From: Candidatus Anderseniibacteriota bacterium
Lineage (GTDB): Bacteria; Patescibacteriota; Andersenbacteria; UBA10190
Length of the DNA stretch: 35,426 nt
NCBI GenBank assembly: GCA_016197005.1
Contig: JACPWO010000001.1
Span: forward strand, 540,544-575,969
Direction: 5' to 3'
The notes under the pieces are model-generated. The model searched no databases and was not told where the DNA came from. It worked only from the letters and a program-made list of their open reading frames with translations. The translations under genes and the position numbers were made by a program. Positions 4,973 to 35,426 of the stretch are shown piece by piece (the stretch's first letter is position 1; every line of letters begins with the position of its first letter).

Positions 4973-4989
4973 AGGGAGAGGTAAAGGGT

Positions 4990-6546
4990 TTAGGCGTATC
5001 GGAAGAGTTTGCGAAAACGAATGTATTCGGTCAAACGAAGTCCGGTCCAGCGACCCAACAGAATATTTAATGGAATAGCCAGTAGAACTACTTCAGGATA
5101 CGAGACAATAATGGTGCGCATAAGTTGCCAGCTGACAATGTAATAGCAAGCAACTGAGAGAGCGAGAGTCCAGGCGGTAATAGTGAAAGCTTGGCGAGCA
5201 CCTGACTTAAATTGCACCGCAATAAATTCTTCAGCTAGCAGCGTAAGAATAAGGATAGGAAAAATAGAGAAAGAGAGGAGAGTTGTTTGCTCGGTTACAA
5301 TACCGATTCCAAAGAGTGCCAATATAGCCAAGCTGACAGTCGTTAAAACAAGGGCCATGCGTGGTAGATATAAGAGTTGCAATCGTTTCATTAGGAGGCG
5401 AGTAAGAGTGCCCGCAGCCAATATAACCGAGAACACAATAAGTCCATATTCCAAACCAAGAACCAAAAAGCTAAGCGTAGTCATTGCTGGTGTAATGAGT
5501 CCAAAGGCTTTAATGCCAATGACCTGCCGGGCAAAGGATAAGATAGTGGCAATAACGGGGAGCATTAAGATAAGCGTAATGTTGTTAATAGGCACGCCTC
5601 GGTTTACTAAGAAATCCACGGAGAATGACATGAAGTTGGTAATACCAAGATCTCGAACAGTGCGAGCGCTGAATGTTCCCAGGAGGCGGTGAGCAATTTG
5701 TGAGCTAACAATTGCTTGGTGAGCTTCTTCGGCCACCATCGGCTCCAGGAGGAGATCCAGAGTTTGCGGTCGGGTAATAATAACGTAGCTGGGACGGAGG
5801 CGGTCAAACACGGATTGAGCAGCTGGGGCTAAGACGCCAAAGGGAGTATCGGATAAAAGAATAATACCCTTGTCGGATACGCCGAGGTCGCCACTAGATA
5901 ACTCTTGAGACTGTTCAATCCGCTGGCTAAATTTAGAAAAGGCACTCGCTCCCACACTACCAGCGGTCCAACTAAATAAGAGATCGGCACGGCTAATAGC
6001 ATCACGGGCATCGAGCAGTTGATTGGTAAGTTCCTCTTCAATAATTGCTTCCGGGCCGCTACTCTGAGCGCGTAGTTCTACTAAAAGTATTCCGTTTTCG
6101 GCCGCTTGTTGTTGTTTGACTCGCACGGTATCGGGGGAGGCGCTGTCGTCCGTAGTTAAGATAACAACGTGCTCGAATACGACAATTTCAGTGGTGTCTT
6201 CAAGGGATCCTCGGTTGGTTGTGAGGCGAACGTTTACTTTGTATGATCCGGGTTTTTGGTAGGCGTGAGAGACTTTTTCTCCTGTTGTTCGAATGCCATC
6301 ACCAAAGTCCCATAGCACCTCAGTAATTTCTAAGTTTTCAGGAATAGAAGAGCCTGATAGATCAAATGTGAGACGTCGTCCCGTAAAGGTGTGACGGCTG
6401 CTTCCAGTAGTAATACCAATGACCGGCTCTTCAGATTGCTGTTCATCCTTATTTTCCGAAGAAGTATCTTCTTGAGCGTGGGCAAAGCCTGGCAGCACTA
6501 CTGCGGCGATTAAGAGTGCAAAAAGGGATTTTCTTATGCGATACAT
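4990..6546 (-). CDS. Signal peptide + PKD domain + unknown ectodomain + C-terminal 7-TM module (7TM_transglut-like) membrane protein
   Basis: 518 aa with signal peptide 'LLIAAVVLPGFAHAQE'. The PKD signature is 'VLWDFGDGIRTTGEKVSHAYQKPGSYKVNVRLT'. Seven hydrophobic helices occupy the last ~210 aa, ending in 'LLGRWTGLRLTEYIRFR'. The stop lies 17 nt upstream of the ATP-grasp gene start. Confidence 0.6.
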   Translation of the reverse strand: MYRIRKSLFALLIAAVVLPGFAHAQEDTSSENKDEQQSEEPVIGITTGSSRHTFTGRRLTFDLSGSSIPENLEITEVLWDFGDGIRTTGEKVSHAYQKPGSYKVNVRLTTNRGSLEDTTEIVVFEHVVILTTDDSASPDTVRVKQQQAAENGILLVELRAQSSGPEAIIEEELTNQLLDARDAISRADLLFSWTAGSVGASAFSKFSQRIEQSQELSSGDLGVSDKGIILLSDTPFGVLAPAAQSVFDRLRPSYVIITRPQTLDLLLEPMVAEEAHQAIVSSQIAHRLLGTFSARTVRDLGITNFMSFSVDFLVNRGVPINNITLILMLPVIATILSFARQVIGIKAFGLITPAMTTLSFLVLGLEYGLIVFSVILAAGTLTRLLMKRLQLLYLPRMALVLTTVSLAILALFGIGIVTEQTTLLSFSIFPILILTLLAEEFIAVQFKSGARQAFTITAWTLALSVACYYIVSWQLMRTIIVSYPEVVLLAIPLNILLGRWTGLRLTEYIRFRKLFRYA

Positions 6547-9609: not shown

Positions 9610-10190
9610 CGGCGCCATATCGCGTACATCCCTGCTAGTACGAGCATTCCCATAGGAATAGCCGACGCGCCCATAATGAGTCCAGCTGTTTTGCCGCTGA
9701 GGGCGTAGTCGAGCGTGAGAAAGAAGTAGACAAAGAAGCGAGGACGGACGGTAAACGTATAAGGAAATCCACGGGCATCTCGGATGAGAGATACAAATAC
9801 AAGAGAGGCGTAGGTAGCAAAGAAAATGAGAATGAGAGAATACGGCTCATGGGCGAAAAGGAAAGCGTACAGACAGGCGCTCGCAATCCCCACCATATCA
9901 GCAGCCGTATCAACGAGGACGCCAGTGGGGCCAGTCTTTTGCCAGCGCGCTAGGGCGCCATCAATACCATCAAGTAAGACGTGCACCCATAAACCAATAA
10001 GGAAGATGGTTGGCTCGTGAAGTAGAAGGGCACCAAGAAGACCACTGGCGGCTACGAGACCAGAGAGGAAACTAATGTGGTTAGCCGTTATCTTCCAGGC
10101 CGCAAGGGTGCGAACTAGTGGCAAGAAGAACCTATCTTTATATCGTTGGAAGCTTTTCATCGCTCCCCGTTCAGCTACAGCGTAAAGCAT
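9591..10190 (-). CDS. CDP-alcohol phosphatidyltransferase family protein
   Basis: 199 aa polytopic membrane protein with the family motif 'LDGIDGALARWQKTGPTGVLVDTAADMV' (D-G-x2-A-R...G-x3-D-x3-D). An alternative ATG start lies at 10160. The 3' end overlaps ruvB convergently by 19 nt. Confidence 0.75.
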   Translation of the reverse strand: MLYAVAERGAMKSFQRYKDRFFLPLVRTLAAWKITANHISFLSGLVAASGLLGALLLHEPTIFLIGLWVHVLLDGIDGALARWQKTGPTGVLVDTAADMVGIASACLYAFLFAHEPYSLILIFFATYASLVFVSLIRDARGFPYTFTVRPRFFVYFFLTLDYALSGKTAGLIMGASAIPMGMLVLAGMYAIWRRQSRAR

Positions 10191-10196
10191 AAAAAA

Positions 10197-11924
10197 ATGA
10201 TACCATTACTTGTAATGAGGAAGCTGCAAGCAAGTGCTTTCTTGGCTCTACTGGGGAGTGGTATTACTGTCGCTTATGCTGCAGAAAATGGTGTTCGAAT
10301 CAGCGAAGTAATGTGGGATGGCACGGAATATGTTGAGTTGTACAACGGAGGAGACGAGGAAGTTAGGCTGGAAGGTTGGAAACTTAGTCGACAGAAAGCG
10401 GGGACAGACGAACAAACTATTATTACCTTTACTGATGATCACCGAATTGATGCCGGTGATTACTTTCTTATTGAAAAAAACCAAGATGCCACTTCGATTG
10501 AAGCTGATGCTATAGCTAGCAGTCTTACCCTTGTAAATACTGGTGAGGCAGTGCGCCTGTATGATGATAAAAACAACACTCGGGATAGCGCTGGTGGAGA
10601 AGGCGCTTGGCTAGCTGGCAAGAATACGGATACAGGTGTTTCCATGGAGCGGACAGCTGACGGGTGGCAAAGTTCAAGTGGAGCAGGCGGTGGACGGAGC
10701 GGGACGCCGCGAGCAGCTAATAGTTCAGGGCAGGCAGAGAGCTCAACTACTCCAGTGCCACAATCGTACGACACACCGCTTCTCATTAATGAGTTTCTAC
10801 CGAATCCTAGTGGGGAAGACGCTGCTAGTGAGTTTATCGAACTGTATAATCCGAGTGATGGATCAGTTGATTTGTCGGGCTGGCAAATTGACGACGCATC
10901 CGGCGGTAGTACACCTTATCGTATCCCCGACAATACATCAGTGGCTTCTCATTCCTACATTGTATTTAAAAGTACTGACACGAAGATTGCTCTTAATAAT
11001 ACTAATGACAGTGTGCGCTTACTGGATCCTACAGGAGGCGTGCAAGAGGAGACGAGTTATACAGGGGGTCCAGAAAATCAGTCATATAATCGCGATACAG
11101 CGGGCTCATACAAACTCAGTACTACCATAACGAGTGGCAATACTAATGTTATTACCCAGCCCGCTCCTTCTCCCGCGGCTACACCAAAGGCTACTTCCAC
11201 CCCAACGGTTAAGCCTTCACCTATCAAGACAGCCAGTCCTACCTCTTCTGTTACGGGAATAGCGAACGCTACTATTGTCATCTGGCGTCTCCTGCCGGAT
11301 CCGGTAGAAAAAGATGAGGAGGGGGAATATATCGAGGTAAAAAACAAGGAGAGTAAAAGTGTAACGCTCACTGGTTGGAAGCTCGATGATGAAGAGGGTG
11401 GCAGTACCCCTTATGAAATTCCCGAAGAAACAACTATTGCTGCCGGACAGATAATTTCCTTTCCCCGCGAGGAAACAAATATTGCCTTAAACAACACAGG
11501 AGATACGGTTCGACTTTTAAATCCAGCTGGTGTCGTCGTTGATCAGATAACGTACGGAAAAGTGGGCGCTGGTGAGATTGTCAGTGTGGAGAGTGGTAGT
11601 GTAGCTGGCGCCACAACAACCGCATCGACAACATCTGCACCGGTGTCGTCAGACTCACCTACTGTAAGTACAATAGCAAAGGAAGGAGAATCATCAGAAG
11701 GCGTGGAAGTTGTCGAAGGAATTCCACAAACACAAGTAGCTTTAGCTGGAGCTTCACATTTAGGACAAACAGCATTAGTTGAGGAGACGTCCTCTAATAA
11801 AAAAAGCCAGCGTGACGGTATTGTAGCTGGTGTCCTCTTAATCGGCGGAGCAGGAGCAGCTGCTGTTGCCTATGCTAAACCAGGCACATTGGCGAAGTTA
11901 AAATCTTTTGTTAGTAACGCGTAA
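10197..11924 (+). CDS. Surface protein with three lamin-tail-domain (LTD) repeats, P/T/S-rich linkers and a C-terminal TM anchor
   Basis: Three copies occur of the pattern 'I(N/S)E..(P/W)......E(Y/F)IEL(Y/K)N......L.GW.L.D..' followed by 'N..D.VRLL(D/N)P.G'. The signal peptide is 'MIPLLVMRKLQASAFLALLGSGITVAYA'. I prefer the ATG at 10197 to the track start at 10146. The C-terminal hydrophobic helix is 'GIVAGVLLIGGAGAAAVAYA'. Confidence 0.7.
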   Translation: MIPLLVMRKLQASAFLALLGSGITVAYAAENGVRISEVMWDGTEYVELYNGGDEEVRLEGWKLSRQKAGTDEQTIITFTDDHRIDAGDYFLIEKNQDATSIEADAIASSLTLVNTGEAVRLYDDKNNTRDSAGGEGAWLAGKNTDTGVSMERTADGWQSSSGAGGGRSGTPRAANSSGQAESSTTPVPQSYDTPLLINEFLPNPSGEDAASEFIELYNPSDGSVDLSGWQIDDASGGSTPYRIPDNTSVASHSYIVFKSTDTKIALNNTNDSVRLLDPTGGVQEETSYTGGPENQSYNRDTAGSYKLSTTITSGNTNVITQPAPSPAATPKATSTPTVKPSPIKTASPTSSVTGIANATIVIWRLLPDPVEKDEEGEYIEVKNKESKSVTLTGWKLDDEEGGSTPYEIPEETTIAAGQIISFPREETNIALNNTGDTVRLLNPAGVVVDQITYGKVGAGEIVSVESGSVAGATTTASTTSAPVSSDSPTVSTIAKEGESSEGVEVVEGIPQTQVALAGASHLGQTALVEETSSNKKSQRDGIVAGVLLIGGAGAAAVAYAKPGTLAKLKSFVSNA

Positions 11925-24080: not shown

Positions 24081-25154
24081 ATGAATTTAGTTGAATTCGA
24101 AGGAAAAGAATTATTCAAAAAGTATGGCATCCCAGTGCCGAAAGGAATTGTTGTAAAATCTTCGGTTGAAAAAGTCTCGTTTCCCTCTCCGGCAGTAGTA
24201 AAAAGTCAGGTTCCTGTAGGGGATAGGGGTCGTAAAGGCGGTATTCTAATTGCTAAAAACACGAAGGAAATTTCATCAGCAGTCACTAAAATTTGGCAAA
24301 CTTCCATCGGTGGGTACGTGCCTGAGAGTCTCTTAATAGAGGAACTTGTAAGTAGTATCGCTGAGCGATACGTAAGTATCTCCTACGATAGTGGTATGCG
24401 CCAACCGGTACTGGCCATTAACAAGCAAGGTGGCTCGGGAACCGCGCGGGCTTCCCTCACCTACATTGATCCCCTGGAAGGCCTACAGTCATATCTTCTT
24501 CGGCAAGCACTTTTTGCCTCTGGGCTTAAGCCATCTCGAGCGCTGGCAGATATTATTAAATCTTTGTGGAATCTATTTCAGTCTGAGCACGCAATTTTAG
24601 CTGAGATGAATCCACTGTTTGAGTTAGCAGATGGTAGTTTTGTTGCTGGGGACGCCAAAGTTATTTTAGACGACAACGCGGTACGACCTGAGTACCGACC
24701 ATACGTTCAGATGAGCGGAGATATTGCGGTGCTTGCCTCGGGTGGAGGTGCTTCCATGATCAATTTAGATGCACTTATGCGAGCAGGTGGACGACCGGCT
24801 AATTACGTTGAGTACTCCGGTAACCCAAAATCGGAAGTAGTACGGACGCTTACGAAAAAAGTTCTATCACAAAGAGGGCTAAAAGGTTGTTGGGTTGTTG
24901 GGGGCACTGCCAACTTTACTGATATTTATGAAACCTTACTTGGGTTTACCGAAGGCCTTTTGTCGGTAAAACCCAAGCCAAAGTACCCGATTGTTATTCG
25001 TCGTGATGGACCCCGACAAAAAGAGGCGTTTGTGATGCTGAAGCAATTTAGTGAGCAGCACGATTTTGATATTCATCTCTTTGGTCCAGAAATTCCGATG
25101 TCAGAATCCGCTAAAGTCATGGTGAAGTTGGCTTATAAGAGAAAGAAGAAATAA
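24081..25154 (+). CDS. SucC-like ATP-grasp subunit (succinyl-CoA synthetase beta / citryl-CoA synthetase / ACL-beta family)
   Basis: 357 aa. 'MNLVEFEGKELFKKYGIPVP' parallels SucC 'MNLHEYQAKQLF..YG.P.P'. Other blocks are 'VVKSQVPVGDRGRKGGI', 'AEMNPL' and 'ANYVEYSGNP'. Confidence 0.75.
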   Translation: MNLVEFEGKELFKKYGIPVPKGIVVKSSVEKVSFPSPAVVKSQVPVGDRGRKGGILIAKNTKEISSAVTKIWQTSIGGYVPESLLIEELVSSIAERYVSISYDSGMRQPVLAINKQGGSGTARASLTYIDPLEGLQSYLLRQALFASGLKPSRALADIIKSLWNLFQSEHAILAEMNPLFELADGSFVAGDAKVILDDNAVRPEYRPYVQMSGDIAVLASGGGASMINLDALMRAGGRPANYVEYSGNPKSEVVRTLTKKVLSQRGLKGCWVVGGTANFTDIYETLLGFTEGLLSVKPKPKYPIVIRRDGPRQKEAFVMLKQFSEQHDFDIHLFGPEIPMSESAKVMVKLAYKRKKK

Positions 25155-25155
25155 T

Positions 25156-26055
25156 ATGGCAATTTTAGTAGACCATAAGACCAACGTTCTTGTTCAGGGG
25201 ATTACCGGCACAGAAGGCTCTCGGGCGGTTAAAGAAATGCTGTTGTATGGCACCACCGTAGTGGCTGGAGTGACCCCGGGTAAGGGCGGACAGAAAGTAG
25301 AAAAAGTACCAGTTTATAACTCGATCAAAGAAGCTCTCAAAAAACATCCAGAAATTAATACAACGCTTGTTGCCGTGCCGCCAATGTTTGTAAAGGATGC
25401 CATTCTCGAAGCAGTTGCCAGTCGCATTCCGCTCATAAACGTACTGACCGAGAAGGTACCGGTAGCCGATATTGCTTACTGTTTCGCTGCGGCACAACGT
25501 ATGGGCGTCCGAATCGTTGGGCCGAGCTCCGTTGGTATTATTTCTCCTGGGAAAGCGAAGGTTGGAGCTATCGGTGCTGCTGAATTGGTAGATCGCGTGT
25601 TTAAAGCAGGTGTGGTTGGAGTTATCTCGAAAAGCGGTGGTATGACTGCTGAAATTTCTCGTATTTTAACGGAAGCAGGCTTAGGACAAAGTACCGCTGT
25701 TGGTATCGGGGGCGAGGTATTGCTCGGTTCAGATTTTGTTGATTTGGCTCGTCTTTTTGAAGCAGATAGACAGACGAAGGTAATTGTTATCTTTGGCGAA
25801 GTAGGTGGACCATATGAGGAACTTTTGGCGGAGGCTATGACTGCTGGTGAAATTACAAAGCCGGTTGTTGCTCTTATTGCTGGTGGGTTCTCAACAAAGC
25901 TCCCTTCTGGCACTGTTTTGGGGCATGCGGGTGCCATTGTTAGTGCGGGGAAGGGGTCGGCTGAGTCTAAGATACGGGCACTTACAAAGGCCGGCGCGCG
26001 CATCGCCAAATCTCCAGAAGATATCCCGAAATTGGTCAAGAAAATGTTAGGATAA
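25156..26055 (+). CDS. SucD-like CoA-binding subunit with phosphohistidine loop
   Basis: 299 aa with 'VLVQGITGTEGS', 'VAGVTPGKGGQ', 'VGPSSVGIISPG', 'SKSGGMT' and 'VLGHAGAIVSAGKGSAESK'. Confidence 0.85.
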   Translation: MAILVDHKTNVLVQGITGTEGSRAVKEMLLYGTTVVAGVTPGKGGQKVEKVPVYNSIKEALKKHPEINTTLVAVPPMFVKDAILEAVASRIPLINVLTEKVPVADIAYCFAAAQRMGVRIVGPSSVGIISPGKAKVGAIGAAELVDRVFKAGVVGVISKSGGMTAEISRILTEAGLGQSTAVGIGGEVLLGSDFVDLARLFEADRQTKVIVIFGEVGGPYEELLAEAMTAGEITKPVVALIAGGFSTKLPSGTVLGHAGAIVSAGKGSAESKIRALTKAGARIAKSPEDIPKLVKKMLG

Positions 26056-26059
26056 GAAC

Positions 26060-26755
26060 ATGTTAGACATTGAGACTGCAATCAGCGAGAACAAAGACGG
26101 CCATCATTACATTCATGGTCACGACGTACTGGAGCTCATCGAAAAGAAGTCATTCACCGATATGTTGTTTTTGCTGTGGCGAGGAAATGAGGCTAATGCA
26201 AAAGAAAAAGAATTATTAGAGGCGATGCTCGTAGCATGCGTCGAACATGGAGTGGAAGCTCCCTCTTTATTTGTACCCAGAGTAGTTGCTTCAACAGGTA
26301 ATGACATGAATGCTTCTTTGGCAGCCAGTGCACTTACGGTCAACAAAAAACACGGGGGAGCAATTGAAGCAGCAGCTAGTATGCTGGCTGAAGATAAGAT
26401 AGCGGAAGATAGTGTAAAAGAACGACTTGAATCCAAGAAGATTATTCCTGGTCTTGGTCATAAGATATATAAAGATGAAGATCCGCGGGCCACTGTTCTG
26501 GGAAAGAAAGCAGAGGGATTGGGTTTCCAGGGCGGCTACTTTAAAAAGATGTATGCCATTGAAGCGGCCTTTGAATCTATGAAAGGGAAGCGTTTGCCTG
26601 TGAACATAGATGGTGCTCTGGCTGCTGGTATGCTTGAGCTCAAACTAAATCCTGTGTATGGCATGGCGCTGTTTATTATCCCTCGCCTGGTCGGAGCTGC
26701 AGCACACATTGTTGAAGAGCAAAAATCTGGTGGAAGTTACCGAAGGTTAAAGTGA
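26060..26755 (+). CDS. Short citrate-synthase-fold protein, citryl-CoA lyase-like (equivalent to the ACL C-terminal module)
   Basis: 231 aa with 'ACVEHGVEAPSLFVPRVVASTGNDMNASLAASALTVNKKHGGA', 'IIPGLGHKIYKDEDPRA' and 'PVNIDGAL'. These correspond to the citrate synthase His/His/Asp catalytic motif contexts. It lacks the large N-terminal part of true citrate synthases. Confidence 0.65.
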   Translation: MLDIETAISENKDGHHYIHGHDVLELIEKKSFTDMLFLLWRGNEANAKEKELLEAMLVACVEHGVEAPSLFVPRVVASTGNDMNASLAASALTVNKKHGGAIEAAASMLAEDKIAEDSVKERLESKKIIPGLGHKIYKDEDPRATVLGKKAEGLGFQGGYFKKMYAIEAAFESMKGKRLPVNIDGALAAGMLELKLNPVYGMALFIIPRLVGAAAHIVEEQKSGGSYRRLK

Positions 26756-27528: not shown

Positions 27529-27975
27529 ATGCCGGATATCGTCATGGTTGCTAAGCCGTCCGAGTATGTGTCTAAAGAGAGCACGTATAAAACTTTATGG
27601 CTTACAGCTGCAGATTTTTGGCAAAATGAGGCGCTCGTCCGCACTCATGACGAGGTGTTGTGGCAGGCCTTTCGTACTCACGGTAAATACCAGCACGCAG
27701 TCCAGAAAGCGGATTGGTTTGCAGTGGCGGTAGACGAAGCTGGGCAATATGTATCTTCGGCCTTTGTTATTACGGTCAGCGATGTTTGGATCATTGAATA
27801 CGTTATGACCAACCCTACCTTTGAAGGTAAAGGTGCTGGCTCAGCAGTTATGGGTCGGATTATGACGGAGGCAAAAAAAGCAGGCTCTACGTGGGCAGTA
27901 CTGAATTGTGATCCAGAATTTCGTGAAGGTCAGCTACCTAAGTTCTATAGTAAGTTCGGCTTTAAACAATCGTAA
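27529..27975 (+). CDS. GNAT-family N-acetyltransferase
   Basis: 148 aa with the acetyl-CoA binding motif context 'VMTNPTFEGKGAGSAVMGRIMTEAKKAG' and the C-terminal 'FYSKFGF'. Confidence 0.75.
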   Translation: MPDIVMVAKPSEYVSKESTYKTLWLTAADFWQNEALVRTHDEVLWQAFRTHGKYQHAVQKADWFAVAVDEAGQYVSSAFVITVSDVWIIEYVMTNPTFEGKGAGSAVMGRIMTEAKKAGSTWAVLNCDPEFREGQLPKFYSKFGFKQS

Positions 27976-28274
27976 TGCTAGCTGTTCGTGTGTTAAGTCC
28001 GCAGAATGTCTCCTGGAAAGGAGAAGCTCAGGCGGTGACTGCTATAAATAAGCTCGGGCCGTTTAGTATTCTTCTGGATCACGCTAACTTTATAACCACT
28101 ATCAAAGATACGGTTACGATTATACCGGCCTCTGGAGCTAGCTATTCTTTTGAGGTCGGTCTCGGTGTCTTATTTTGTCGTAATAACCAAGTAGAAATCT
28201 TTATTCAGTTGCCAATTGACGCTCAGGAACAGCGGGCTTGGTGGCAGAGTTTGCGATCTTCGAAGGAGAACTAG
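27975..28274 (+). CDS. atpC: F-type ATPase epsilon subunit, N-terminal beta-sandwich only
   Basis: 99 aa. 'LAVRVLSPQNVSWKGEAQAVTAINKLGPFSILLDHANFITTIKDTVTII...VGLGVLFCRNNQVEIFI' follows the epsilon pattern (L.V.I.TP....G....V.....G.FGIL..H.P..T.L..G.V......V.GG...V..N.V.I.). The start overlaps the GNAT stop (TAATG). Confidence 0.6.
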   Translation: MLAVRVLSPQNVSWKGEAQAVTAINKLGPFSILLDHANFITTIKDTVTIIPASGASYSFEVGLGVLFCRNNQVEIFIQLPIDAQEQRAWWQSLRSSKEN

Positions 28275-29679
28275 GCTTTTTCGCGCTATCGATAATCTTG
28301 GTGGTGGTAGCATCGTCGATATACCGGAGGCGCTCAGGATCAACTGAATCGAGTTTACCGCCTACAATGTCATTAATGATCTCAACTGTTCGTTTGCGTG
28401 GCACTGATACATCAGGATGTCCGGTTTCTGCTGCCGAGAGGTACATATCTTGAGTCATGTAGTTCGTAATGAGCTTGGCGCGTCGAAATATCTTTTGGTT
28501 ATCTGAAGCCAGTTCATTTTCTCCTACTAATGAAGCAATACGTTCGAGTTCGGCAGACAATTCGAGGATTTGCTTCGCTTGGATATACGCCAAGTAATGT
28601 TTATTACCCACAATACTTGGCGTAAGGGCCGCTGAATTGGAAGCTAGAAGGTCAATTGCGGGGTAGCGACCGGACTGAAATATGTCGCGAGACAAAATAA
28701 TAGTGGTGTCGAGGAAGGGGAAAGCGGCTCGTACCCCTGCATCGGTAAAGTCGTCACCGGGGACAAACAGAGCCATAAAGGAAGACACGGATGCGTGCTT
28801 GGTGGAGTGTAGCCGCTCGTTCAAAGAAGCCATTTCACTGGTGAGTGTTGCTTGATAGCCGTCTTCAGAGGGGATGGTATTGGTAATAGTGGCGAGCTCG
28901 TGTCCGGCCTGGGCAAAACGGTACAGGTTGTCCATGTAATACAACACGTCTGTTTTCTCTTCATCGCGGAAGTACTCGGCAATAACCGCCCCGGCATAAG
29001 CCGTACGAAACCGGACAGCGGGATTTTCTCCCATCTGTCCTAAAATGAGGGTTGTTTTAGGTAGAACGCCACTTTCTTTTAGATCATTGTATAGTTCCTG
29101 TGCTTCACGTGAGCGTTCACCTACGGCGCTAAAGACGGCCACGCCAGCTCGTTGTTTCTTATCTTGCGGGCGTATTACCAACCGCTGGGCCAGCTGCGTT
29201 AAGACAACCGTTTTACCTACTCCCGCTCCTCCGATTAAGGCTGCCTTACCGCCATGGAGAAGCGGTGTAAAGAAATCGATCGCTTTAATACCGGTCTCCA
29301 TAATATCCTTTGGAGCAACAATAGTATTGAGGTTGCGATGAGGGGTGGTGTGCAGTGGTCGGCGGGGCTCGGCCGGTAGTGGTCCGGCGCCATCGTGAGG
29401 GGTGGAGAAGATATCGAAGGCTCGACCTAAGACGGCTGATCCGACTGGGACCATGAGGGGCTGCCCGGTTAGCTGCACTACTTGCCCTCGTGACAGACGC
29501 TTGCCAGACTTAAGAACAAGACAGTAGACACTGCGGGGGGTAGCAGAAGCTATTACTTCCATCTGAGCGGGATATTCTCCGCCAGTTGTTAAGACGTCAC
29601 CACGCTTGGGAGCGCCCGTAGAAAAACTAACTTCCGCAATACTGCCAGTGATGGCTAAAATGTGTCCTTCGGCATTCAT
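28201..29679 (-). CDS. atpD: F1 ATPase beta subunit (divergent, with a C-terminal tail)
   Basis: 'GGAGVGKTVVLTQL', 'VFSAVGERSREAQELY', 'LGQMGENPAVR', 'MDNLYRFAQAGHE', 'EDGYQATL', 'VPGDDFTD' and 'GRYPAIDLLAS'. I prefer the ATG at 29679, which is ATGA-coupled to the atpG stop, over the TTG at 29691. Confidence 0.85.
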   Translation of the reverse strand: MNAEGHILAITGSIAEVSFSTGAPKRGDVLTTGGEYPAQMEVIASATPRSVYCLVLKSGKRLSRGQVVQLTGQPLMVPVGSAVLGRAFDIFSTPHDGAGPLPAEPRRPLHTTPHRNLNTIVAPKDIMETGIKAIDFFTPLLHGGKAALIGGAGVGKTVVLTQLAQRLVIRPQDKKQRAGVAVFSAVGERSREAQELYNDLKESGVLPKTTLILGQMGENPAVRFRTAYAGAVIAEYFRDEEKTDVLYYMDNLYRFAQAGHELATITNTIPSEDGYQATLTSEMASLNERLHSTKHASVSSFMALFVPGDDFTDAGVRAAFPFLDTTIILSRDIFQSGRYPAIDLLASNSAALTPSIVGNKHYLAYIQAKQILELSAELERIASLVGENELASDNQKIFRRAKLITNYMTQDMYLSAAETGHPDVSVPRKRTVEIINDIVGGKLDSVDPERLRYIDDATTTKIIDSAKKPSSPSKIANSATKPAVPERQLATE

Positions 29680-30509
29680 CGCTTTGACCAAAGCCTAAGA
29701 CCCGAGAGACGTTCTCGTTGTTGTTTGTTACGCATTTGGCGAGTGCTTTCCCGAGAAATACGTTTTAACTTGTACTGGCGGGAACGAATGGCATTATCTG
29801 CTAGTTCCATAGCCGTTATTTGTGATCCTAATTCAGCCAGGGTGTTTTCGTCCGCTGCTTGCTTAAAGAGAAGCGCAACTAAGTTACGATCAAACAATGA
29901 CACAATTGTTTCCAGAGAAGGTTCAAAGACAAATTGCTCGCTTGAGGCGGTGGATTTTTTCTTTGCTAGCACATCGCCAATCGTAACATGTGTTGGACGC
30001 TGACTTACAAGGTTGGCGTACTGACCAAATACAAAAGTAATGCTTTTATACCGAAGGAGCGTTTGAACAAGAGGAGCGAGTGCTTGCTCGTCCTTCTGCC
30101 AGCCTTTAGGTAATTCAATGTAGTTAAAGTCCGCACCTGGTAATTCAGAGATAAAGCGCTGCTTTCCTACCGAACCAATCACAATGGGATCACTGGGATG
30201 AAGTTCCAGGTACTCGATAAAGTAGCGAAAGGTAGCAGAGGTAATAGGGCCGGTAAGATACTGTTCAGCTGAGAAGAGGACGACTGCGTTGCCACGACGA
30301 GATTTCTCCAGCGTTGTTACCTCGCCCTGATACGCATCTCGGACTTGTCCGAAAACAGAAGAGAGGCGTTCAAAGAATTGGCGGGAAGCGAGCACATTTT
30401 TTTGTGGTTCTTGAATACGGGACACCGCAATCTCTTGTTTCGCCGTGACCATCGGAGCCAACTCTTCCAGGAGTTTAAGCTCTACCTGGATACTGTCGCT
30501 GTTTGGCAT
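29676..30509 (-). CDS. atpG: F1 ATPase gamma subunit (divergent)
   Basis: 277 aa located between alpha and beta. The C-terminal block 'FVFEPSLETIVSLFDRNLVALLFKQAADENTLAELGSQITAMELADNAI' matches the gamma pattern FEP....+....L.......+..A..ES.ASE..AR..AM..A..NA. Confidence 0.75.
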   Translation of the reverse strand: MPNSDSIQVELKLLEELAPMVTAKQEIAVSRIQEPQKNVLASRQFFERLSSVFGQVRDAYQGEVTTLEKSRRGNAVVLFSAEQYLTGPITSATFRYFIEYLELHPSDPIVIGSVGKQRFISELPGADFNYIELPKGWQKDEQALAPLVQTLLRYKSITFVFGQYANLVSQRPTHVTIGDVLAKKKSTASSEQFVFEPSLETIVSLFDRNLVALLFKQAADENTLAELGSQITAMELADNAIRSRQYKLKRISRESTRQMRNKQQRERLSGLRLWSKR

Positions 30510-31966
30510 AGTTCTTCAATGTGAGGACGATTTTCTCCAATTTGTTGTACGAGATGCTCAAGTTTCGATAGTTTTACCATGTCGTCAAAAAGACGTTTTG
30601 CTTCTGGGTCGCTGCTGTATTGCTGGACGAGGTGATCTCGCCAGTGCGCGGGGGTATCCTCTGGCTGTTCATTAAGCCAACCACGCCAAATCATAGTAGT
30701 TAGGACGAGTTGAACAGGAAGAGGCACCGTCAGGAAGGCTGGTTGGGAAAAGAATTGCATGAGACGTTTGCCAGTGGCGAGAATAGTTTTTACTTCCTCG
30801 GTCATTTCACTACCGAACTTCGTAAATTGCTGAGCATCTCGGTATTTTGCCAGGAAAGCCATTAGTTCAATGTTTAGTTGTTTCGCTGCTGGAAGCTGGA
30901 CTTTTAGCCCCACGCGCGTAACCGACGCAGCTACGTCTACGGCCGGCCGCTGGCCGGCAGCAAATCGCACCGAGTCAAAGTGAAGATGGCCGTCAGTGAT
31001 ACTAATAAGATTAGACACAATGTATCCCGAGACGCTGTTTTGAACGGTCTCACCTACGACGAGACAAGTAATAGAAGCCTCTTTCTTTTCGGGATGTATA
31101 AAGTTACCACCTCGTTCGAGAAGACGAGCATGGGCGTGAAATATATCTCCAGGGTAGGACTCACGACCGGGGAAGCGTCCAGAGAGAAGGGCGACTTCAC
31201 GATAGTAGCGAGCATGGGTTGAGAGGTCGTGGAGAATGAGTAGGACATCTTCCCCAGCGTCACGCCAATATTCTGCCACCGTCATAGCTGCGTATGGAGT
31301 AAGGATAATGAGACTAGGAATATCCTCGGCGCTGCTGGCAACAACAATAACGTTTTTCGTATTCGTTTCTTCGTTCACAAAGTCAGCAATACGTCGTATC
31401 TCACTGAGTGGCCGACCAATGGCGGCAAACACGACAATTCCTCGATTAGCATGCGCTTTGGCAGCAGCTAAAACGAATGAGGTCTTCCCGGTTTTTAGGT
31501 CACCAATGACGGCTTCACGTTGGCCGGCTGCCAGTGGAACAAGGAGGTCAACGACCGAAGTACCCGTGACAAACTGACGCTTAATGGGTTTACGTTTTTC
31601 AATTGGTAATGGATGAATATCAATGAGGCGCTGCTCGGTCTCGCCCTGAATTTTTATACCGGGCAGTAGCGGCTCGCCGAGCGGATTAAGTATTTGTCCT
31701 CGCTGTCCTTTACCGACTGGAATGTGAAGACGCTGACCAGTTCGAGTGAGACGAGTGCCGGGTTGAATGGGTTCACCACTTAAGAGAGCAATATGGACTA
31801 CGTCTGGTTGCAAGTCCGAAACGTACCCAATCTGTCCATCCTCAAATATAACGATCTCGTCAGTCGTAGCCTCAGGCAGACCACTCGCAAAAATAAGAGG
31901 GAAGCGAACTTGCTCTACAGTCCCGTACTCTTTTGTTTTTTCTAAATATTCTTTAAACCTGTTCAT
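30482..31966 (-). CDS. atpA: F1 ATPase alpha subunit (divergent)
   Basis: 'GQREAVIGDLKTGKTSF', 'VFAAIGRPLSEI', 'AEYWRDAGEDVLLILHDLSTHARYYREVALLSGRFPGRESYPGDIFHAHARLLERG', 'ISITDGHLHFDS' and 'GQRPAVDVAASVTRVG'. Confidence 0.85.
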   Translation of the reverse strand: MNRFKEYLEKTKEYGTVEQVRFPLIFASGLPEATTDEIVIFEDGQIGYVSDLQPDVVHIALLSGEPIQPGTRLTRTGQRLHIPVGKGQRGQILNPLGEPLLPGIKIQGETEQRLIDIHPLPIEKRKPIKRQFVTGTSVVDLLVPLAAGQREAVIGDLKTGKTSFVLAAAKAHANRGIVVFAAIGRPLSEIRRIADFVNEETNTKNVIVVASSAEDIPSLIILTPYAAMTVAEYWRDAGEDVLLILHDLSTHARYYREVALLSGRFPGRESYPGDIFHAHARLLERGGNFIHPEKKEASITCLVVGETVQNSVSGYIVSNLISITDGHLHFDSVRFAAGQRPAVDVAASVTRVGLKVQLPAAKQLNIELMAFLAKYRDAQQFTKFGSEMTEEVKTILATGKRLMQFFSQPAFLTVPLPVQLVLTTMIWRGWLNEQPEDTPAHWRDHLVQQYSSDPEAKRLFDDMVKLSKLEHLVQQIGENRPHIEELCQTATVSR

Positions 31967-32387
31967 ATCTTTGTAGAGCCTTTACTAGAGAAAAATCATA
32001 TATTCTTCCTCCTACACTTATTACTACGCCTCCGACGATACTCGGATTGGTAGCAATGGTAAGTTCAGCTGGTTTCGGTATGAGTTCAGCCAACCACGTT
32101 TGCAGGTGATTAGTGAGATTTGGCGATGGTCGAATCGCTATGGTTATTTCTACTTCCTGACGCCCTTCTAAATCTTGTCTTAGGGCAGTGATTGCCTTTG
32201 TCGGATCGAGGTCTTTGAAGGAAGGGGGGAGAGAAGTATGGACAAAGGTGGGAAGAAGTTCGGAAAAGTTGATAGAAGAACTGCGCAGGTGGTGCAGTCG
32301 CTGATTGATACTATCGAGATGACTGCGAAGTTCATCAGCTTCTTCGCGCAAGATAACGGGCGGTAAAAGTGGCTCGTCTTTTTTCAT
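31953..32387 (-). CDS. atpH: F-type ATPase delta/OSCP subunit, short form (only the C-terminal domain is recognisable)
   Basis: 144 aa. 'EVEITIAIRPSPNLTNHLQTWLAELIPKPAELTIATNPSIVGGVVISVGGRIYDFSLVKALQRY' parallels the E. coli delta C-terminal domain. The N-terminal ~75 aa do not resemble the usual helical bundle. Confidence 0.7.
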   Translation of the reverse strand: MKKDEPLLPPVILREEADELRSHLDSINQRLHHLRSSSINFSELLPTFVHTSLPPSFKDLDPTKAITALRQDLEGRQEVEITIAIRPSPNLTNHLQTWLAELIPKPAELTIATNPSIVGGVVISVGGRIYDFSLVKALQRYEQV

Positions 32388-32388
32388 A

Positions 32389-32976
32389 TTAGTTCCATTG
32401 AATATCGGAAGTTGCTTTTTTGAGGGCCTCCTGGATAATTTTTTCTTGATCAGGTACTGAAATAGCCTTTCCTACTACCTCGTTCAAAATCTCCGGGAGT
32501 CTTTCAGAGAGACGTTGGCGAATTTTTTCTTGCTCTTCGTGAGCTACTTGGCGCAAGGATTTTTTCATTTCTTCTCCATACGCAAGTGCTTGTTGGGAAA
32601 GTTCAGCGCGAGTCTGGGTGAGGAGACTAGCCGTGTGAGCGGAGAGTTGTTTAAAATGTTCCTCTGAGTGAGCTTTAAGAGAGACAGAGAGACTCTCTAA
32701 GATCTCCTTTTGGTGTTCAATAATGGTATCCAGTACGTGTCGAGATTCTGTGCCGACAGATTCAGCTGCGCTCAGAAGACGACCGCGAATTGCGGCTTGG
32801 GTCTCTTTTGAGAATATTTCTGTCTGCTCAAGAATTTGTTCTGCCTGTCGGCCAGCCAGTTCTAATACTTTTTGGCTTTCACGCATTATTTCGCTTAATT
32901 CAGCAGCAGAAGCATCTAGCTTTCGCTGTAATTTATGGTTATTTAATGTGCCGATTTTTTCATCAAATAAAGCCAT
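32389..32976 (-). CDS. Coiled-coil protein at the b-subunit (peripheral stalk) position, without a TM helix
   Basis: 195 aa, almost entirely charged or helical (E/Q/K/R/L/A rich). It lies immediately upstream of atpH. The C-terminal 'EILNEVVGKAISVPDQEKIIQEAL' is reminiscent of the b C-terminus. The N-terminus 'MALFDEKIGTLNNHKLQ' is not hydrophobic. Confidence 0.45.
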   Translation of the reverse strand: MALFDEKIGTLNNHKLQRKLDASAAELSEIMRESQKVLELAGRQAEQILEQTEIFSKETQAAIRGRLLSAAESVGTESRHVLDTIIEHQKEILESLSVSLKAHSEEHFKQLSAHTASLLTQTRAELSQQALAYGEEMKKSLRQVAHEEQEKIRQRLSERLPEILNEVVGKAISVPDQEKIIQEALKKATSDIQWN

Positions 32977-32982
32977 AGCGTA

Positions 32983-33756
32983 TTAGAAAACAAGAATGAG
33001 ATAGCCGAGTACCAAACCGACAATAACGAGCGCAATAGTAATGGCGGTATGAAAACCAACGAGCACATAAATTGAACGCTTAGCTAAAGGATTTCTGCCA
33101 AGAGCTGCGACTGTAGAAGAGCTCGTTCGGCTATACATCCAGTACCCCGCGATGAGGGAAGCGAGAATAATGAGGGTCGAAACGATGTATCGAAGGGGGC
33201 GCGGTAGGGCTGTTAACGTTTCGCCGGGATTAGCCAGGATAGATCCGAGAGCAAACCCTGATCCTTCTGGCCAGACAAACCCTGGATTAATGGCTGCTGG
33301 AACCAAGGCAGTTTCATTTGCGGAAACATGGGAGGGCCCTAGAGCCCGCCCAATTACGAATCCAGGGTCGGCGGCTGCTTGCCCTACTCCTGCAGTTTGT
33401 GAACTCGTGATATACATACCAGCCTCAATTGGTCCTTGGACTAAAACTTCCGCGCTGCCTGATCCAACCAGTGGAATGGTACCTGCTGAACCTACATAAC
33501 TTATGGCAACACTCGGATTAATAGATGCGATTCCTGCTAAATTTTCGTCGTAGGGAATAGTAGCGAGTCGATATTGACCAGCGATGAAACTAATAAGTTG
33601 TCCCTGTTTAATATCGTTAGCGTTTTCTATAGGAACATACTCAGCAATGCCGCGAGACAACTCTTGAGCAAAAGCCACGGACGGCAATATAAGACTACCT
33701 ATTACAAGGAAAGAAACCCTCCAGTTCATGAGACTCATTATATAGAGTATTTTCAC
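32983..33756 (-). CDS. Secreted/membrane protein at the c-subunit position: signal peptide + ~180 aa ectodomain + C-terminal c-subunit-like TM hairpin lacking the carboxylate
   Basis: The signal peptide is 'NWRVSFLVIGSLILPSVAFA/QE'. The C-terminal 'RYIVSTLIILASLIAGYWMYSRTSSSTVAALGRNPLAKRSIYVLVGFHTAITIALVIVGLVLGYLILVF' has two TM helices joined by a basic 'GRNP' loop. The start is uncertain (GTG 33756, ATG 33738 or ATG 33729). Confidence 0.35.
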   Translation of the reverse strand: MKILYIMSLMNWRVSFLVIGSLILPSVAFAQELSRGIAEYVPIENANDIKQGQLISFIAGQYRLATIPYDENLAGIASINPSVAISYVGSAGTIPLVGSGSAEVLVQGPIEAGMYITSSQTAGVGQAAADPGFVIGRALGPSHVSANETALVPAAINPGFVWPEGSGFALGSILANPGETLTALPRPLRYIVSTLIILASLIAGYWMYSRTSSSTVAALGRNPLAKRSIYVLVGFHTAITIALVIVGLVLGYLILVF

Positions 33757-34308
33757 CTTTGCGTATCAAGGAAAGGTAGAAGAGATAAGATCCGGCGTAG
33801 AGGCAATATAACGCCTTGTTTATATTCAGTATACATACAATTAAGTTACTAATAATTAATATTTTGATAAATTATAATGCCCATATAACTACCATTTGCA
33901 CACCTTTTAACAACTCCTGCCTAATTTTCTGATACTCTTCCTGTGTCTGGTGAAATTAAATTTTCCTACTATTTTTTAGTCGATTTCACTGAAATAGGTG
34001 AGGTTGTCTGCTCTTTGAGGTCCATTATTGATCCTACAAAAGTTTTAAAAGATCTTCAGATGATCGGTCGTATGACTTTTTATCTCCAAGCAGTGAGGCA
34101 CAAGTGAGCTAGAAACCCAGGGTGAGCCTCTAACAGCTCAGTTACTAGTAAAGTGAGTAAACGGGGGGGCTTCTCTCATATTTATATTGAGGTGCCGAAA
34201 TTTAATAAGGTAATTTTTATCTAAAAGGTGGACGTATAGGCATTTTTATTGCTAGATCTATCCTCTCAAAGATCTTGCCTAAACTGTGCAAAAGTTTCCT
34301 GATATTGT

Positions 34309-34317
34309 TGCTATAAT
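34309..34317 (+). promoter_or_regulatory. Extended -10 promoter element (TGcTATAAT) candidate
   Basis: 'TGCTATAAT' lies about 70 nt upstream of the HTH gene's candidate GTG start. No good -35 hexamer was seen, which is compatible with extended -10 promoters. Confidence 0.35.
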
Positions 34318-34328
34318 AACCGGGTATT

Positions 34329-34358
34329 ACCTAGGCATTGCCTAACCATTGCCTAGGT
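34329..34358 (+). promoter_or_regulatory. Operator-like inverted repeat ACCTAGGCA-N12-TGCCTAGGT, also containing the direct repeat CATTGCCTA x2
   Basis: Perfect 9 bp inverted arms lie at 34329-34337 and 34350-34358. The site sits between the -10 candidate and the start of the tandem-HTH gene. Confidence 0.45.
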
Positions 34359-34388
34359 TTATCCTTCAATCAACATAACAGACCCACT

Positions 34389-35426
34389 GTGGTCCAAAAC
34401 AAAAGAGGGGCAACTGAACTCGTTCCAATTGCTGAGGCTGCAGCAATTCTTGGTGTGTCTGTGGATACGGTCCGTCGTTGGGAGCGGGGCGGAAAATTAA
34501 AAGCTCATCGTTCTCCTGGCGGTCATCGCCTCTTTTCTAAAACTGATTTAAACGCGTTTAAACAAGATCAAGGATTTTCTATATCAGAAGCGGCGGCTCG
34601 TCTTGAAGTTTCTACTAGTACTCTACGTCGCTGGGAACGAGAAGGAAAAGTTACGGCTGAAAGAAATGAGAAGGGCGAGCGAGTATTTACCCAACAGCAG
34701 CTTAATCTATTAGAAGATGGAGAAGCGGCGAGCTTTCCTTCATCATATCCTGTTCTTTCCTATGATAAGACAAATAATGATATATTAGTTCCTAAAGTCC
34801 AGTCACTTTCTAATCACAGTTCCGTAACCTTAGCACCCTCTCCTTCTAAGATTCGTGAAGATTTAGGTCTACCTAAAGAGAAGATCAGGTTTAAAGGTTT
34901 GGCATTTGGTTTAACTGTACTACTTCTGCTCTTGAGTGGGGTGACAACAGCGGGGGTGAAATACTTTGGAGTAAAAAATGGAGGAGGTAGAGAGGCTCGA
35001 AGTAATTCCAATACCCTTGCAGTCTTACCGGGTATTGGGGAAACCGAGCGAGCCCGTGGTCGAGTTCTGGCTTTAGTAACAGAAGACGAAGATAGATTCT
35101 TTCAGGTAAATATTCCTGCATTTTTTGAAAGCGGTCTGAACACGACAGAAATTTTTACGGAACGGCTGCGAGCAATTCCGGGACTGACAGTTATTGATGC
35201 TCAAGGGACGAGTATCGATTTTGGTACTGGTACCATCGAAGCATCAAATTTAGTCTATAGTCTCCAAGGTCAACGCGGTGACGTAACCCTCACAGCCGGA
35301 GAAGGCATTGTGATAGACGGCACCACAATTAGCGCTACTGATTCGGACGTATCTCTTACTAATGCCGGAGACATAACGATCACTGAAACAAGCGATGGGA
35401 TATTTACACTGGCGCTCGAATCCACC
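34389..35426 (+). CDS. Membrane-anchored protein with two tandem MerR/excisionase-type HTH domains, one TM helix and an extracytoplasmic region (partial; runs off the window)
   Basis: This frame is open from 34335 to the window end and is not in the ORF track because it has no stop. HTH 1 is 'IAEAAAILGVSVDTVRRWERGGKLKAHRSPGGHRLFSKTDL'. HTH 2 is 'ISEAAARLEVSTSTLRRWEREGKVTAERNEKGERVF'. The TM helix is 'GLAFGLTVLLLLLSGVTTAGV'. There is no in-frame ATG near the start; the candidates are GTG 34389 and TTG 34338. Confidence 0.6.
   Translation, partial: MVQNKRGATELVPIAEAAAILGVSVDTVRRWERGGKLKAHRSPGGHRLFSKTDLNAFKQDQGFSISEAAARLEVSTSTLRRWEREGKVTAERNEKGERVFTQQQLNLLEDGEAASFPSSYPVLSYDKTNNDILVPKVQSLSNHSSVTLAPSPSKIREDLGLPKEKIRFKGLAFGLTVLLLLLSGVTTAGVKYFGVKNGGGREARSNSNTLAVLPGIGETERARGRVLALVTEDEDRFFQVNIPAFFESGLNTTEIFTERLRAIPGLTVIDAQGTSIDFGTGTIEASNLVYSLQGQRGDVTLTAGEGIVIDGTTISATDSDVSLTNAGDITITETSDGIFTLALEST

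Follow-up and report, generated by a model that had tools for sequence, protein, structure and literature searches.

A 35,426-nucleotide stretch of a Candidatus Anderseniibacteriota genome (GCA_016197005.1, contig JACPWO010000001.1, positions 540,544 to 575,969 of the forward strand; the whole stretch is referred to here as the window) encodes an F1-type ATPase cluster in which the protein at the position of the rotor subunit c, here called cX, is a genuine subunit-c hairpin with its ion-binding carboxylate replaced by an aliphatic residue. The hairpin is fused to an N-terminal part that is modelled as a Sec-exported beta-domain of the phage cement/autochaperone fold. The cluster belongs to a strongly diverged branch of F-type ATPases that is lineage-wide in Microgenomatia and WWE3/Katanobacteria. 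For one whole class of bacteria this shows that the enzyme cannot work as assumed, the rotor having no ion-binding site and no subunit a accompanying it in the operon or nearby; the ATPase head is conserved and under selection. Our preferred reading, in which we place slightly better than even confidence, is that of a diverged F-type machine that hydrolyzes ATP but has given up ion translocation and delivers its output at the outer face of the membrane.

A conserved cluster in Microgenomatia and WWE3

An initial annotation, made from the letters of the window, had recorded an F-type cluster in the order c-b-delta-alpha-gamma-beta, and this order is confirmed. Six open reading frames (ORFs), overlapping or closely packed, fill the minus strand from 28201 to 33756 in the order cX-b-delta-alpha-gamma-beta; together with the epsilon gene, all seven ORFs lie where that annotation had placed them (Table 1), and Pfam recognizes alpha, beta, and gamma, delta over its C-terminal two-thirds, and epsilon.

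Related loci were collected by scanning one genome per GTDB species for the exact motif EAIGRNPLA, taken from a 17-sequence subset of cX proteins (individual loci are cited below by their L numbers). The motif occurs in at least 166 species genomes. The 80 loci examined, out of these 166, all belong to lineages of the Microgenomatia type (Woese-, Levy-, Roizman-, Davies-, Ames-, and Pacebacteria), and many of the third-party metagenome-assembled genomes (MAGs) among them carry a mistaken Gammaproteobacteria label. Five cX loci lie on complete chromosomes (OY970292.1, CP055307.1, OZ246394.1, OZ246395.1, and OZ246419.1). Searched against 1.84 billion representative proteins, the cX profile retrieved 936 clusters with E ≤ 1e-30, and the count rises to 13,723 when the limit is relaxed to E ≤ 1e-10. 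The order cX-b-delta-alpha-gamma-beta-epsilon is nearly invariant, as seen at about 70 loci from the 80 species genomes, and WWE3 shows it likewise; the ORFs are intact in nearly all of these ~70 loci, the exceptions being a split beta in two and a split alpha in one. An assembly artefact was ruled out, as the architecture is repeated in independent assemblies.

A subunit-c hairpin without its carboxylate, fused to an exported domain

The c-position protein had initially been described as a 257-residue ectodomain fusion lacking the essential Glu/Asp, a description with which both alignment and an AlphaFold2 model agree. The database gene call is slightly shorter (248 residues, starting at Met10, position 33729). 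In the full ORF, a signal peptide (residues 1–31, with the cleavage site between ...AFA and QE) is followed by an exported beta-domain (residues ~37–161) and a c-like hairpin (residues 186–256), in which the loop reads ALGRNPLAK and an Ile stands at the position of the ion-binding Glu. Thirty-six database homologues, all from the Candidate Phyla Radiation (CPR; Levybacteria, WWE3, Patescibacteria), align with cX over its full length and have a common architecture, in which a signal peptide, closed by A-x-A-Q, precedes ~130 beta-rich residues with invariant Gly, Thr, and Ser positions, and these are followed by two long hydrophobic helices. The cytoplasmic loop between these helices, G-R-N-P-L-A, is invariant both in the database homologues and in the related loci.

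That the hairpin is a true subunit c is supported by structure and by profile. In the AlphaFold2 model of the window cX (mean pLDDT 89.5), the hairpin superimposes on F-type c subunits with Foldseek TM-scores of 0.75–0.90 and root-mean-square deviations (rmsd) of 1.1–1.6 Å, with 30% identity to the Chloroflexus c subunit. A profile of the 36 hairpins, compared with the PDB, had nothing but c subunits among its first 12 matches, the best at E 1e-4, and no gaps occur in the three alignments printed; hhalign of the cX hairpins against seven canonical c subunits gave E 1.9e-5. The Pfam subunit-c model (PF00137) is not passed by cX, with weak matches in 3 of the 36 homologues. The possibility that cX is an unrelated neighboring gene was ruled out by its position, the hairpin homology, and the conservation of the loop.

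The missing carboxylate can be read directly against a canonical CPR subunit c, encoded in the canonical operon of a CPR-like contig, L087. This protein reads ...EAIGRNPEAQGKITPLMFVGIAFTEALAIF, its loop EAIGRNP is identical to that of cX, and its ion-binding Glu lies 20 residues past the loop Arg. At the same Arg+20 position the cX hairpins of relatives have I, V, L, A, F, M, G, or S in 81 of 81 distinct sequences, and a mid-membrane Asp or Glu is present in none of these 81 hairpins from related genomes and in none of the 36 database homologues (117 sequences). Polar residues of the second helix lie on one face, with Asn or, in a minority, His at Arg+15 and Thr at Arg+19. The predicted topology of cX, with the ectodomain outside, the loop inside, and the C-terminus outside, is the same as in subunit c, and therefore each subunit of a ring would show one beta-domain on the outer face.

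The fold assigned to the ectodomain rests on the model. Foldseek matches to phage cement and preneck-appendage proteins in BFVD reach E 2.6e-11, with an rmsd of ~2.2 Å over ~128 residues, and fold matches in the PDB include 8pkh, 8hdt, 3suc, and 3gqh. Pfam matches to phage cement and Peptidase_G2 IMC families are weak (best E ~1e-3, in 4–8 of the 36 members). The ectodomain would thus share its fold with the cement/decoration proteins of phages (DUF2190) and with the C-terminal autochaperone of phi29 gp12 (Peptidase_G2 IMC), the difference being that here it is encoded by a cell and forms one protein with a rotor subunit of the membrane.

A divergent F1 head with intact catalytic residues

The motifs listed in the initial annotation, GDLKTGKT, GGAGVGKTV, and VGERSRE, were all found intact in the translations. 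In the window, alpha has the P-loop GDLKTGKT and the Arg finger SVTRVG, and beta has GGAGVGKT, GERSRE, a DELSEED-equivalent loop reading GENELASDN, and a low-complexity C-terminal tail. The same holds across the family: beta has GGAGVGKT and GER.RE in 70 of 70 relatives, three P-loop variants each differing at one position that is not Gly, Lys, or Thr; the alpha Arg finger SV[TS]RVG is found in 72 of 75; and the DELSEED-equivalent loop stays acidic (GESELSxED). Judged by these catalytic residues, the F1 head looks active.

Its sequence has diverged far from that of canonical enzymes. The window beta is 37% identical to the beta of Bacillus PS3 and 40% identical to a canonical CPR beta, whereas the identity between these two canonical betas is 68%; overall, beta is 37–43% identical to canonical betas, and cX-type betas are 45–52% (median) identical among themselves. 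On the NCBIfam equivalog models the window scores below the cut-off with all five subunits: alpha 328.8 against 484.45 (TIGR00962, atpA), beta 382.4 against 462.85 (TIGR01039, atpD), gamma 57 against 194, delta 28 against 57.5, and epsilon 38 against 67. The canonical operon of L087 passes both TIGR00962 (alpha, 725) and TIGR01039 (beta, 777). The Pfam gathering scores of OSCP, ATP-synt, and ATP-synt_DE_N are passed by the window. Against the PDB, the window beta finds canonical F1 betas best, at 345 bits, and the beta of the Mycoplasma mobile G1-ATPase at 254 bits; the model for the type III secretion/flagellar ATPases FliI/YscN gives 174, its cut-off being 379.5. Because the window falls short of the equivalog models, of the N-ATPase models, and of both sets of Mycoplasma models (see below), the cX-type ATPase appears, as far as sequence comparison can tell, to be a separate deep branch of the F-type family, outside the F1-like groups described so far. 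A second 'alpha' match, in L052, was considered as a second ATPase and rejected; it is Rho.

No subunit a and no second subunit c at the loci

The initial annotation had reported that no ORF for subunit a lies upstream of the cluster, which abuts an AT-rich spacer. This is indeed the case, the spacer containing two short ORFs without support, no others, and being followed by a divergent gene. Neither ATP-synt_A nor ATP-synt_C was found by Pfam among the window ORFs of at least 90 residues or in the contig end; contig JACOTL010000001.1 (GCA_016178385.1, 45.5 kb) includes the window, and the 10 kb that it adds beyond the cX side hold giant surface-protein genes only. At 86 related loci no subunit a was found in the operon or within 10 kb. 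Searches of the predicted ORFs of the loci with the E. coli subunits gave no match for a and only cX for c, and searches of six-frame translations of 87 loci (~1.4 Mb) with canonical CPR a, c, and b again gave no a, the matches to c being cX only. In the positive control, the canonical operon of L087, a, c, and b were all recognized. The 23 ORFs other than cX with at least four hydrophobic segments in the loci encode competence proteins, VKOR, and the like, and none is an ATP-synt_A protein; no conserved polytopic membrane protein accompanies the operon in the related loci. The gene immediately upstream of cX is mostly on the opposite strand, which leaves the operon without space for an atpB gene. 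When the Chloroflexus c hairpin was used to look for a canonical Microgenomatia c, the search gave 190 candidates, of which the named ones are all from Chloroflexi, and was uninformative in this respect; the L087 control came from a 75-residue match (P0283) in this search.

The stalk subunits

The protein between cX and delta is, by its sequence profile, a homologue of subunit b. In the window it has no match in Pfam or NCBIfam, and the profile of its family finds the Chloroflexus b subunit at E 4e-8 and other ATP synthase b chains at 5e-7 to 4e-5, along with generic coiled-coil proteins. The initial annotation had stated that the b-position protein has no membrane anchor. This stands for the window, where no hydrophobic segment is present, but not as a general feature, as b has one N-terminal transmembrane (TM) helix in ~60 of 70 relatives; alignment with these relatives and with E. 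coli b limits its absence to the window and its two closest relatives, L084 and L085. Delta had been said to keep its C-terminal domain only. That domain is recognizable (over residues 65–142 it scores 45.4 bits on Pfam OSCP, the cut-off being 22.3), and a profile of the family, whose members have 138–195 residues at most loci and up to 220 as ORFs, matches delta/OSCP in the PDB at 2e-8. The statement is nonetheless too strong, since the N-terminal ~64 residues remain and are conserved in the family, shortened and divergent and not recognizably OSCP-like.

Epsilon consists of the beta-sandwich N-domain only; its family has a median of 95 residues and no C-terminal domain. In bacterial enzymes the C-terminal helices of epsilon inhibit hydrolysis. 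The loss of these helices and the location on the other strand, both reported initially, hold for the window, but the inversion is peculiar to the window clade. The epsilon gene there is convergent with beta, overlapping it by 74 nt (28201–28274), and closes a plus-strand run opened by ATP-citrate-lyase-like genes. Inverted, overlapping epsilon genes are also found in L084 (8389–8450) and L085 (7053–7138), the overlaps measuring 62–86 nt and falling on the low-complexity tail of beta; in nearly all other loci epsilon follows beta in line. The anchorless b and inverted epsilon of the window clade are further steps away from a canonical Fo. Another departure is seen in L017, L029, L041, L042, L066, and L077, where cX is followed directly by alpha-gamma-beta-epsilon and no b or delta homologue was found within 10 kb, so that the operon encodes no peripheral stalk.

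Conserved neighbors and a possible link to surface proteins

In 59 of 87 loci a MerR/HTH_17 protein with a homologous N-terminus is encoded beside the operon. The window copy, which is complete in L001 (4401–9341, minus strand), has two cytoplasmic MerR/HTH_17 domains (Pfam MerR 2.6e-23), one TM helix, and then a very large extracellular region. The homologues have one or two helix-turn-helix (HTH) domains, and their region outside the cell ranges between ~230 and over 3200 residues; the TM helix was inspected in the window copy. The gene is mostly divergent from cX, as in the window, and lies downstream of epsilon in Daviesbacteria-like loci. The role of this protein may be that of a regulator tethered to the membrane or of a physical partner. 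In the window, a TATAAT box at 34316 is followed by a 12+12 palindrome, ACCTAGGCATTG-n6-CATTGCCTAGGT, at 34329–34358, ~30 nt upstream of the start of the MerR-HTH gene, and part of this region, AATGCCTAGGT...TATTATAGCA, is partly conserved in the corresponding spacer of L084. Box and palindrome make up a candidate operator, which would fit autoregulation or control of the operon and is offered as a lead. A promoter scan of the spacer gave chance-level matches only, and no Rfam families or tRNAs were found in the spacer or the window.

A domain homologous to the cX ectodomain is present in giant neighboring proteins at 12 distinct loci, with E values down to 1e-25 (profile positions ~24–165; Table 1); none was seen in the window's own neighbors. 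At ~23 loci the gene for 2,3-bisphosphoglycerate-independent phosphoglycerate mutase (iPGM; iPGM_N plus Metalloenzyme) lies between cX and b, for example in L034 (1059–2768) and L011 (10712–12451). Separately, we observed genes for 23S_rRNA_IVP four-helix-bundle proteins beside or inside CPR-like ATPase operons of both the cX type (L002, 9578–9955) and the canonical type (L087, 9649–10005).

Comparison with known systems

The cluster resembles a canonical F1Fo operon (atpBEFHAGDC) in its order from c to epsilon, in its P-loop, Glu, and Arg finger, in the R-N/Q-P hairpin loop, and in its b-like stalk. It differs from such an operon in having no a, in the replaced carboxylate of c, in the fusion of c to an exported beta-domain of ~130 residues, in an epsilon without its C-terminal domain, in a beta only ~38% identical to canonical betas, and in the failure of all five F1 and stalk subunits to reach the equivalog cut-offs.

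Parallels also come from mycoplasmas. The type 2 G1-ATPase of M. mobile (MMOB1660/1670) is likewise an F1-derived alpha/beta/gamma engine without an ion-translocating Fo, and coexists in that organism with a canonical F1Fo. The M. mobile gliding motor is thought to drive giant surface proteins and is associated with phosphoglycerate kinase (PGK), an enzyme of glycolysis (10.1101/2024.06.11.597861). A link to glycolysis is common to both systems, being PGK there and the iPGM gene inside ~23 operons here. The families are different, however, with the window scoring 310 against a cut-off of 850 for beta (MMOB1670) and 310 against 600 for alpha (MMOB1660); moreover, the M. mobile system has no c-like ring, and the link to surface proteins here consists of synteny and domain sharing only. 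The type 3 F1-like cluster of Mycoplasma (MSC_0618/0619, MIB-MIP), reportedly described by Beven and colleagues in 2012 as having no Fo a and c and as repurposed for a surface-directed function, is similar in being divergent and without these two subunits, and differs in its accessory genes and in its models, on which the window scores 336 against 570 (MSC_0618) and 216 against 520 (MSC_0619).

N-ATPases (atpDCQRBEFAG) are a second, divergent, and laterally spread branch of the F-type family (PMC2881411). N-ATPases keep a and a carboxylate-bearing c and pump ions; the window is below the cut-offs of the alt_F1F0 models (370 against 752 and 302 against 750), and no AtpR or AtpQ gene was found at the locus. 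Precedents for c hairpins without a carboxylate are the c1 subunit of Acetobacterium woodii and V-type proteolipids. There, hairpins without a carboxylate share their ring and operon with active ones, to which they are fused or with which they are mixed, whereas here every copy is free of the carboxylate.

What the complex might do

The initial annotation had left the choice between a split atp locus and an F1-like ATPase repurposed for another task, and of these two the evidence favors repurposing. The carboxylate-less fusion is class-wide, stands at the c position, and keeps an invariant docking loop, and all five F1 and stalk subunits fall below the equivalog cut-offs, with sub-lineages that have lost the b anchor or both b and delta. 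We suggest that the complex would assemble as alpha3beta3-gamma-epsilon on a ring of cX, with the cX loop docking gamma and epsilon, and that it would hydrolyze ATP and turn, or at least strain, the ring. Hydrolysis is suggested by the lack of the inhibitory epsilon domain and by the metabolism of these bacteria, which are fermenters without a respiratory chain to drive synthesis. Having no ion path, the complex would neither make ATP from an ion gradient nor pump ions, and its output would be delivered at the outer face, where each ring subunit would contribute one beta-domain. The giant surface proteins encoded beside the operon, some of which have the same domain, may be the target, and the divergent, membrane-anchored MerR-HTH protein may be a regulator of the operon or part of a stator.

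On circumstantial grounds, the most economical purpose of a ring with an external collar would be to pass movement or strain to the cell surface. An output at the surface is pointed to by the synteny and domain sharing with giant proteins and by the parallel with the M. mobile engine. A specific version, which we regard as unlikely but worth stating, is that the F1 engine burns ATP derived from fermentation and turns a non-conducting c-type ring whose beta-domains on the outside engage their homologous counterparts in the giant proteins, so moving or tensioning the adhesin-like 'legs' of an episymbiotic CPR cell. If true, this surface actuator would be a convergent counterpart of the M. mobile gliding motor, built on a retained c-ring.

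Several points weigh against a machine that hydrolyzes ATP without moving ions. Most relatives keep a TM-bearing b, and in canonical enzymes b serves to clamp subunit a. A machine with rotary output must be braced by a fixed stator, and none is evident here, a weak point of this reading; the b of the window clade is unanchored, and it is difficult to see how torque would be transmitted in the clade that has neither b nor delta. The MerR-HTH neighbor could be a plain regulator, and that the complex forms a ring, hydrolyzes ATP, rotates, and interacts with the giant proteins is in each case an inference. In addition, COG0356, corresponding to subunit a, was scored as present in Roizmanbacteria 37_13b, Curtissbacteria 41_16, and Pacebacteria UBA6180 (PMC10656485, Suppl. 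Data 4; Mahendrarajah et al., 2023), so that some members of the class do have canonical enzymes. The searches for a and c covered the window, the contig end, and 10 kb around the loci, and atpB and atpE may lie elsewhere in a genome.

These last points, with the b helix kept by most relatives, also speak for a split locus, in which a canonical a, and perhaps a normal c, encoded elsewhere would complete an ion-translocating F1Fo, with cX as an extra or minority ring subunit or as an assembly or anchoring factor. Such a hybrid rotor would resemble one containing the carboxylate-poor c1 of A. woodii, which is among the PDB matches of the cX hairpin profile, and cX is sometimes labelled subunit c by the NCBI and JGI pipelines. 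In A. woodii, however, all c genes sit in the operon, whereas the 86 related loci have no a or second c within 10 kb. Furthermore, cX occupies the c position exactly, its F1 subunits are far more diverged than those of any canonical enzyme, and the b anchor, or b together with delta, has been lost in sub-lineages. In the closed genome of WWE3 RAAC2, the a, b, and c positions of the ATPase operon were reported to show no homology to known subunits, and the putative c to resemble a membrane protein of OP11/WWE3 ATPase operons (Kantor et al., 2013; PMC3812714). The Roizmanbacteria genome scored positive for a was not among the best 120 matches of a Roizmanbacteria cX search. Even if a canonical operon were present elsewhere in a cX genome, the two could just as well be distinct systems, as they are in mycoplasmas. 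One Saccharibacteria MAG, GCA_001790445, is scored with alpha, beta, gamma, and epsilon in duplicate and with a single a, b, c, and delta (PMC10656485, Suppl. Data 4), counts that would be in keeping with a canonical F1Fo accompanied by a second F1-like cluster that has no Fo. On balance we hold a split locus to be rather improbable, although it survives better than the explanations that follow.

An ordinary ion pump or synthase with an unconventional site appears very unlikely. In such an enzyme the helix-2 Asn/His (Arg+15) and Thr (Arg+19) would carry the ion opposite an a subunit diverged beyond recognition. These residues do recur on one face of the helix in the hairpin alignments, and a membrane potential is assumed to be necessary for CPR bacteria (PMC11665869), but every known F/V/A rotor ring uses Glu or Asp (PMC11738941), Asn is not protonatable, His is the minority residue at its position, and no conserved polytopic membrane protein lies beside the operon. 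Least probable of all is a decaying relic, with the operon being lost through genome streamlining and its odd subunits on the way to pseudogenes, for although ATP synthase is lost or minimal in many CPR and DPANN lineages (PMC10656485) and the losses of a, the b anchor, and b/delta look stepwise, the ORFs are intact almost everywhere, the catalytic motifs, the cX loop, and the Gly/Thr/Ser positions of the ectodomain are invariant, the family is very large, and a new domain has been gained, which is more than a series of losses.

Other features of the window

Outside the cluster and its flank (Table 1), the window holds the usual CPR housekeeping genes (Pfam, ORFs of at least 90 residues), along with a few features of separate interest. 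A three-gene ATP-citrate-lyase-like set at 24081–26755 on the plus strand (ATP-grasp_2 + Citrate_bind; CoA_binding + Ligase_CoA; citrate synthase C-terminal domain) is unusual in a CPR genome; downstream on the same strand are a 254-residue unknown protein, a GNAT acetyltransferase, and epsilon. At 3659–6546 on the minus strand, a 7TM_transglut + PKD membrane protein adjoins an ATP-grasp (ATPgrasp_ST/RimK-like) fused to a Zn-protease/aspartyl-protease-like domain, a combination known as the '7TM-inactive transglutaminase / ATP-grasp' gene pair. A 592-residue protein with three Lamin Tail Domains (LTD, 1e-56) is encoded at 10146–11924 on the plus strand, and its gene overlaps by ~45 nt the 5' end of an opposite-strand CDP-alcohol phosphatidyltransferase-like gene.

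Table 1. Features of the ATPase locus in the window, and giant proteins of related loci that match the cX ectodomain.
Feature	Position	Strand	Length and evidence
Epsilon subunit	27975..28274	+	99 aa; Pfam ATP-synt_DE_N 9.8e-11, residues 3-76
F1 beta-like catalytic subunit	28201..29691	-	496 aa; Pfam ATP-synt_ab 1.3e-60
F1 gamma-like central-stalk subunit	29676..30509	-	277 aa; Pfam ATP-synt 3.4e-18, 66.8 bits vs cut-off 39.9
F1 alpha-like subunit	30482..31966	-	494 aa; Pfam ATP-synt_ab 6.5e-56
Delta/OSCP-like subunit	31953..32387	-	144 aa; Pfam OSCP 1.2e-11
b-like peripheral-stalk protein	32389..32976	-	195 aa; between cX and delta; helical/coiled coil
cX (c-position protein)	32983..33756	-	257 aa as ORF; family alignment, AlphaFold2, Foldseek, profiles
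Divergent intergenic region, cX to MerR-HTH giant gene	33757..34388		632 bp, 36% GC
MerR-HTH giant protein, 5' part	34389..35426	+	GTG start 34389; 1646 aa in full
Giant proteins with cX-ectodomain match (related loci)	L002 8186-9535; L005; L007; L008; L009; L011 1751-9328; L012; L049; L053; L057; L058; L063; L071		

Earlier reports and implications

In our search of the literature, only the report of Kantor et al. (2013) flags the oddity of these operons, in one sentence; no paper was found on the fusion of c to an exported domain, on a class-wide loss of the carboxylate, on the divergence of F1, or on a link to surface proteins. Surveys count these genomes as bearing the enzyme or put the missing subunits down to incomplete MAGs (PMC11738941), and ProAD, which has an 'nc' flag for carboxylate-less c subunits, likewise ascribes incomplete Patescibacteria sets to MAG incompleteness.

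Metabolic models of Microgenomatia would change accordingly, as no ATP-driven proton-motive force would come from the cX-type enzyme. The cX-type cluster would also be a second natural case, besides the mycoplasmas, of an F1 engine recruited for use elsewhere, and the first to keep a c-type ring, decorated on the outside. It provides testable hypotheses for structural and single-molecule work on rotary motors.

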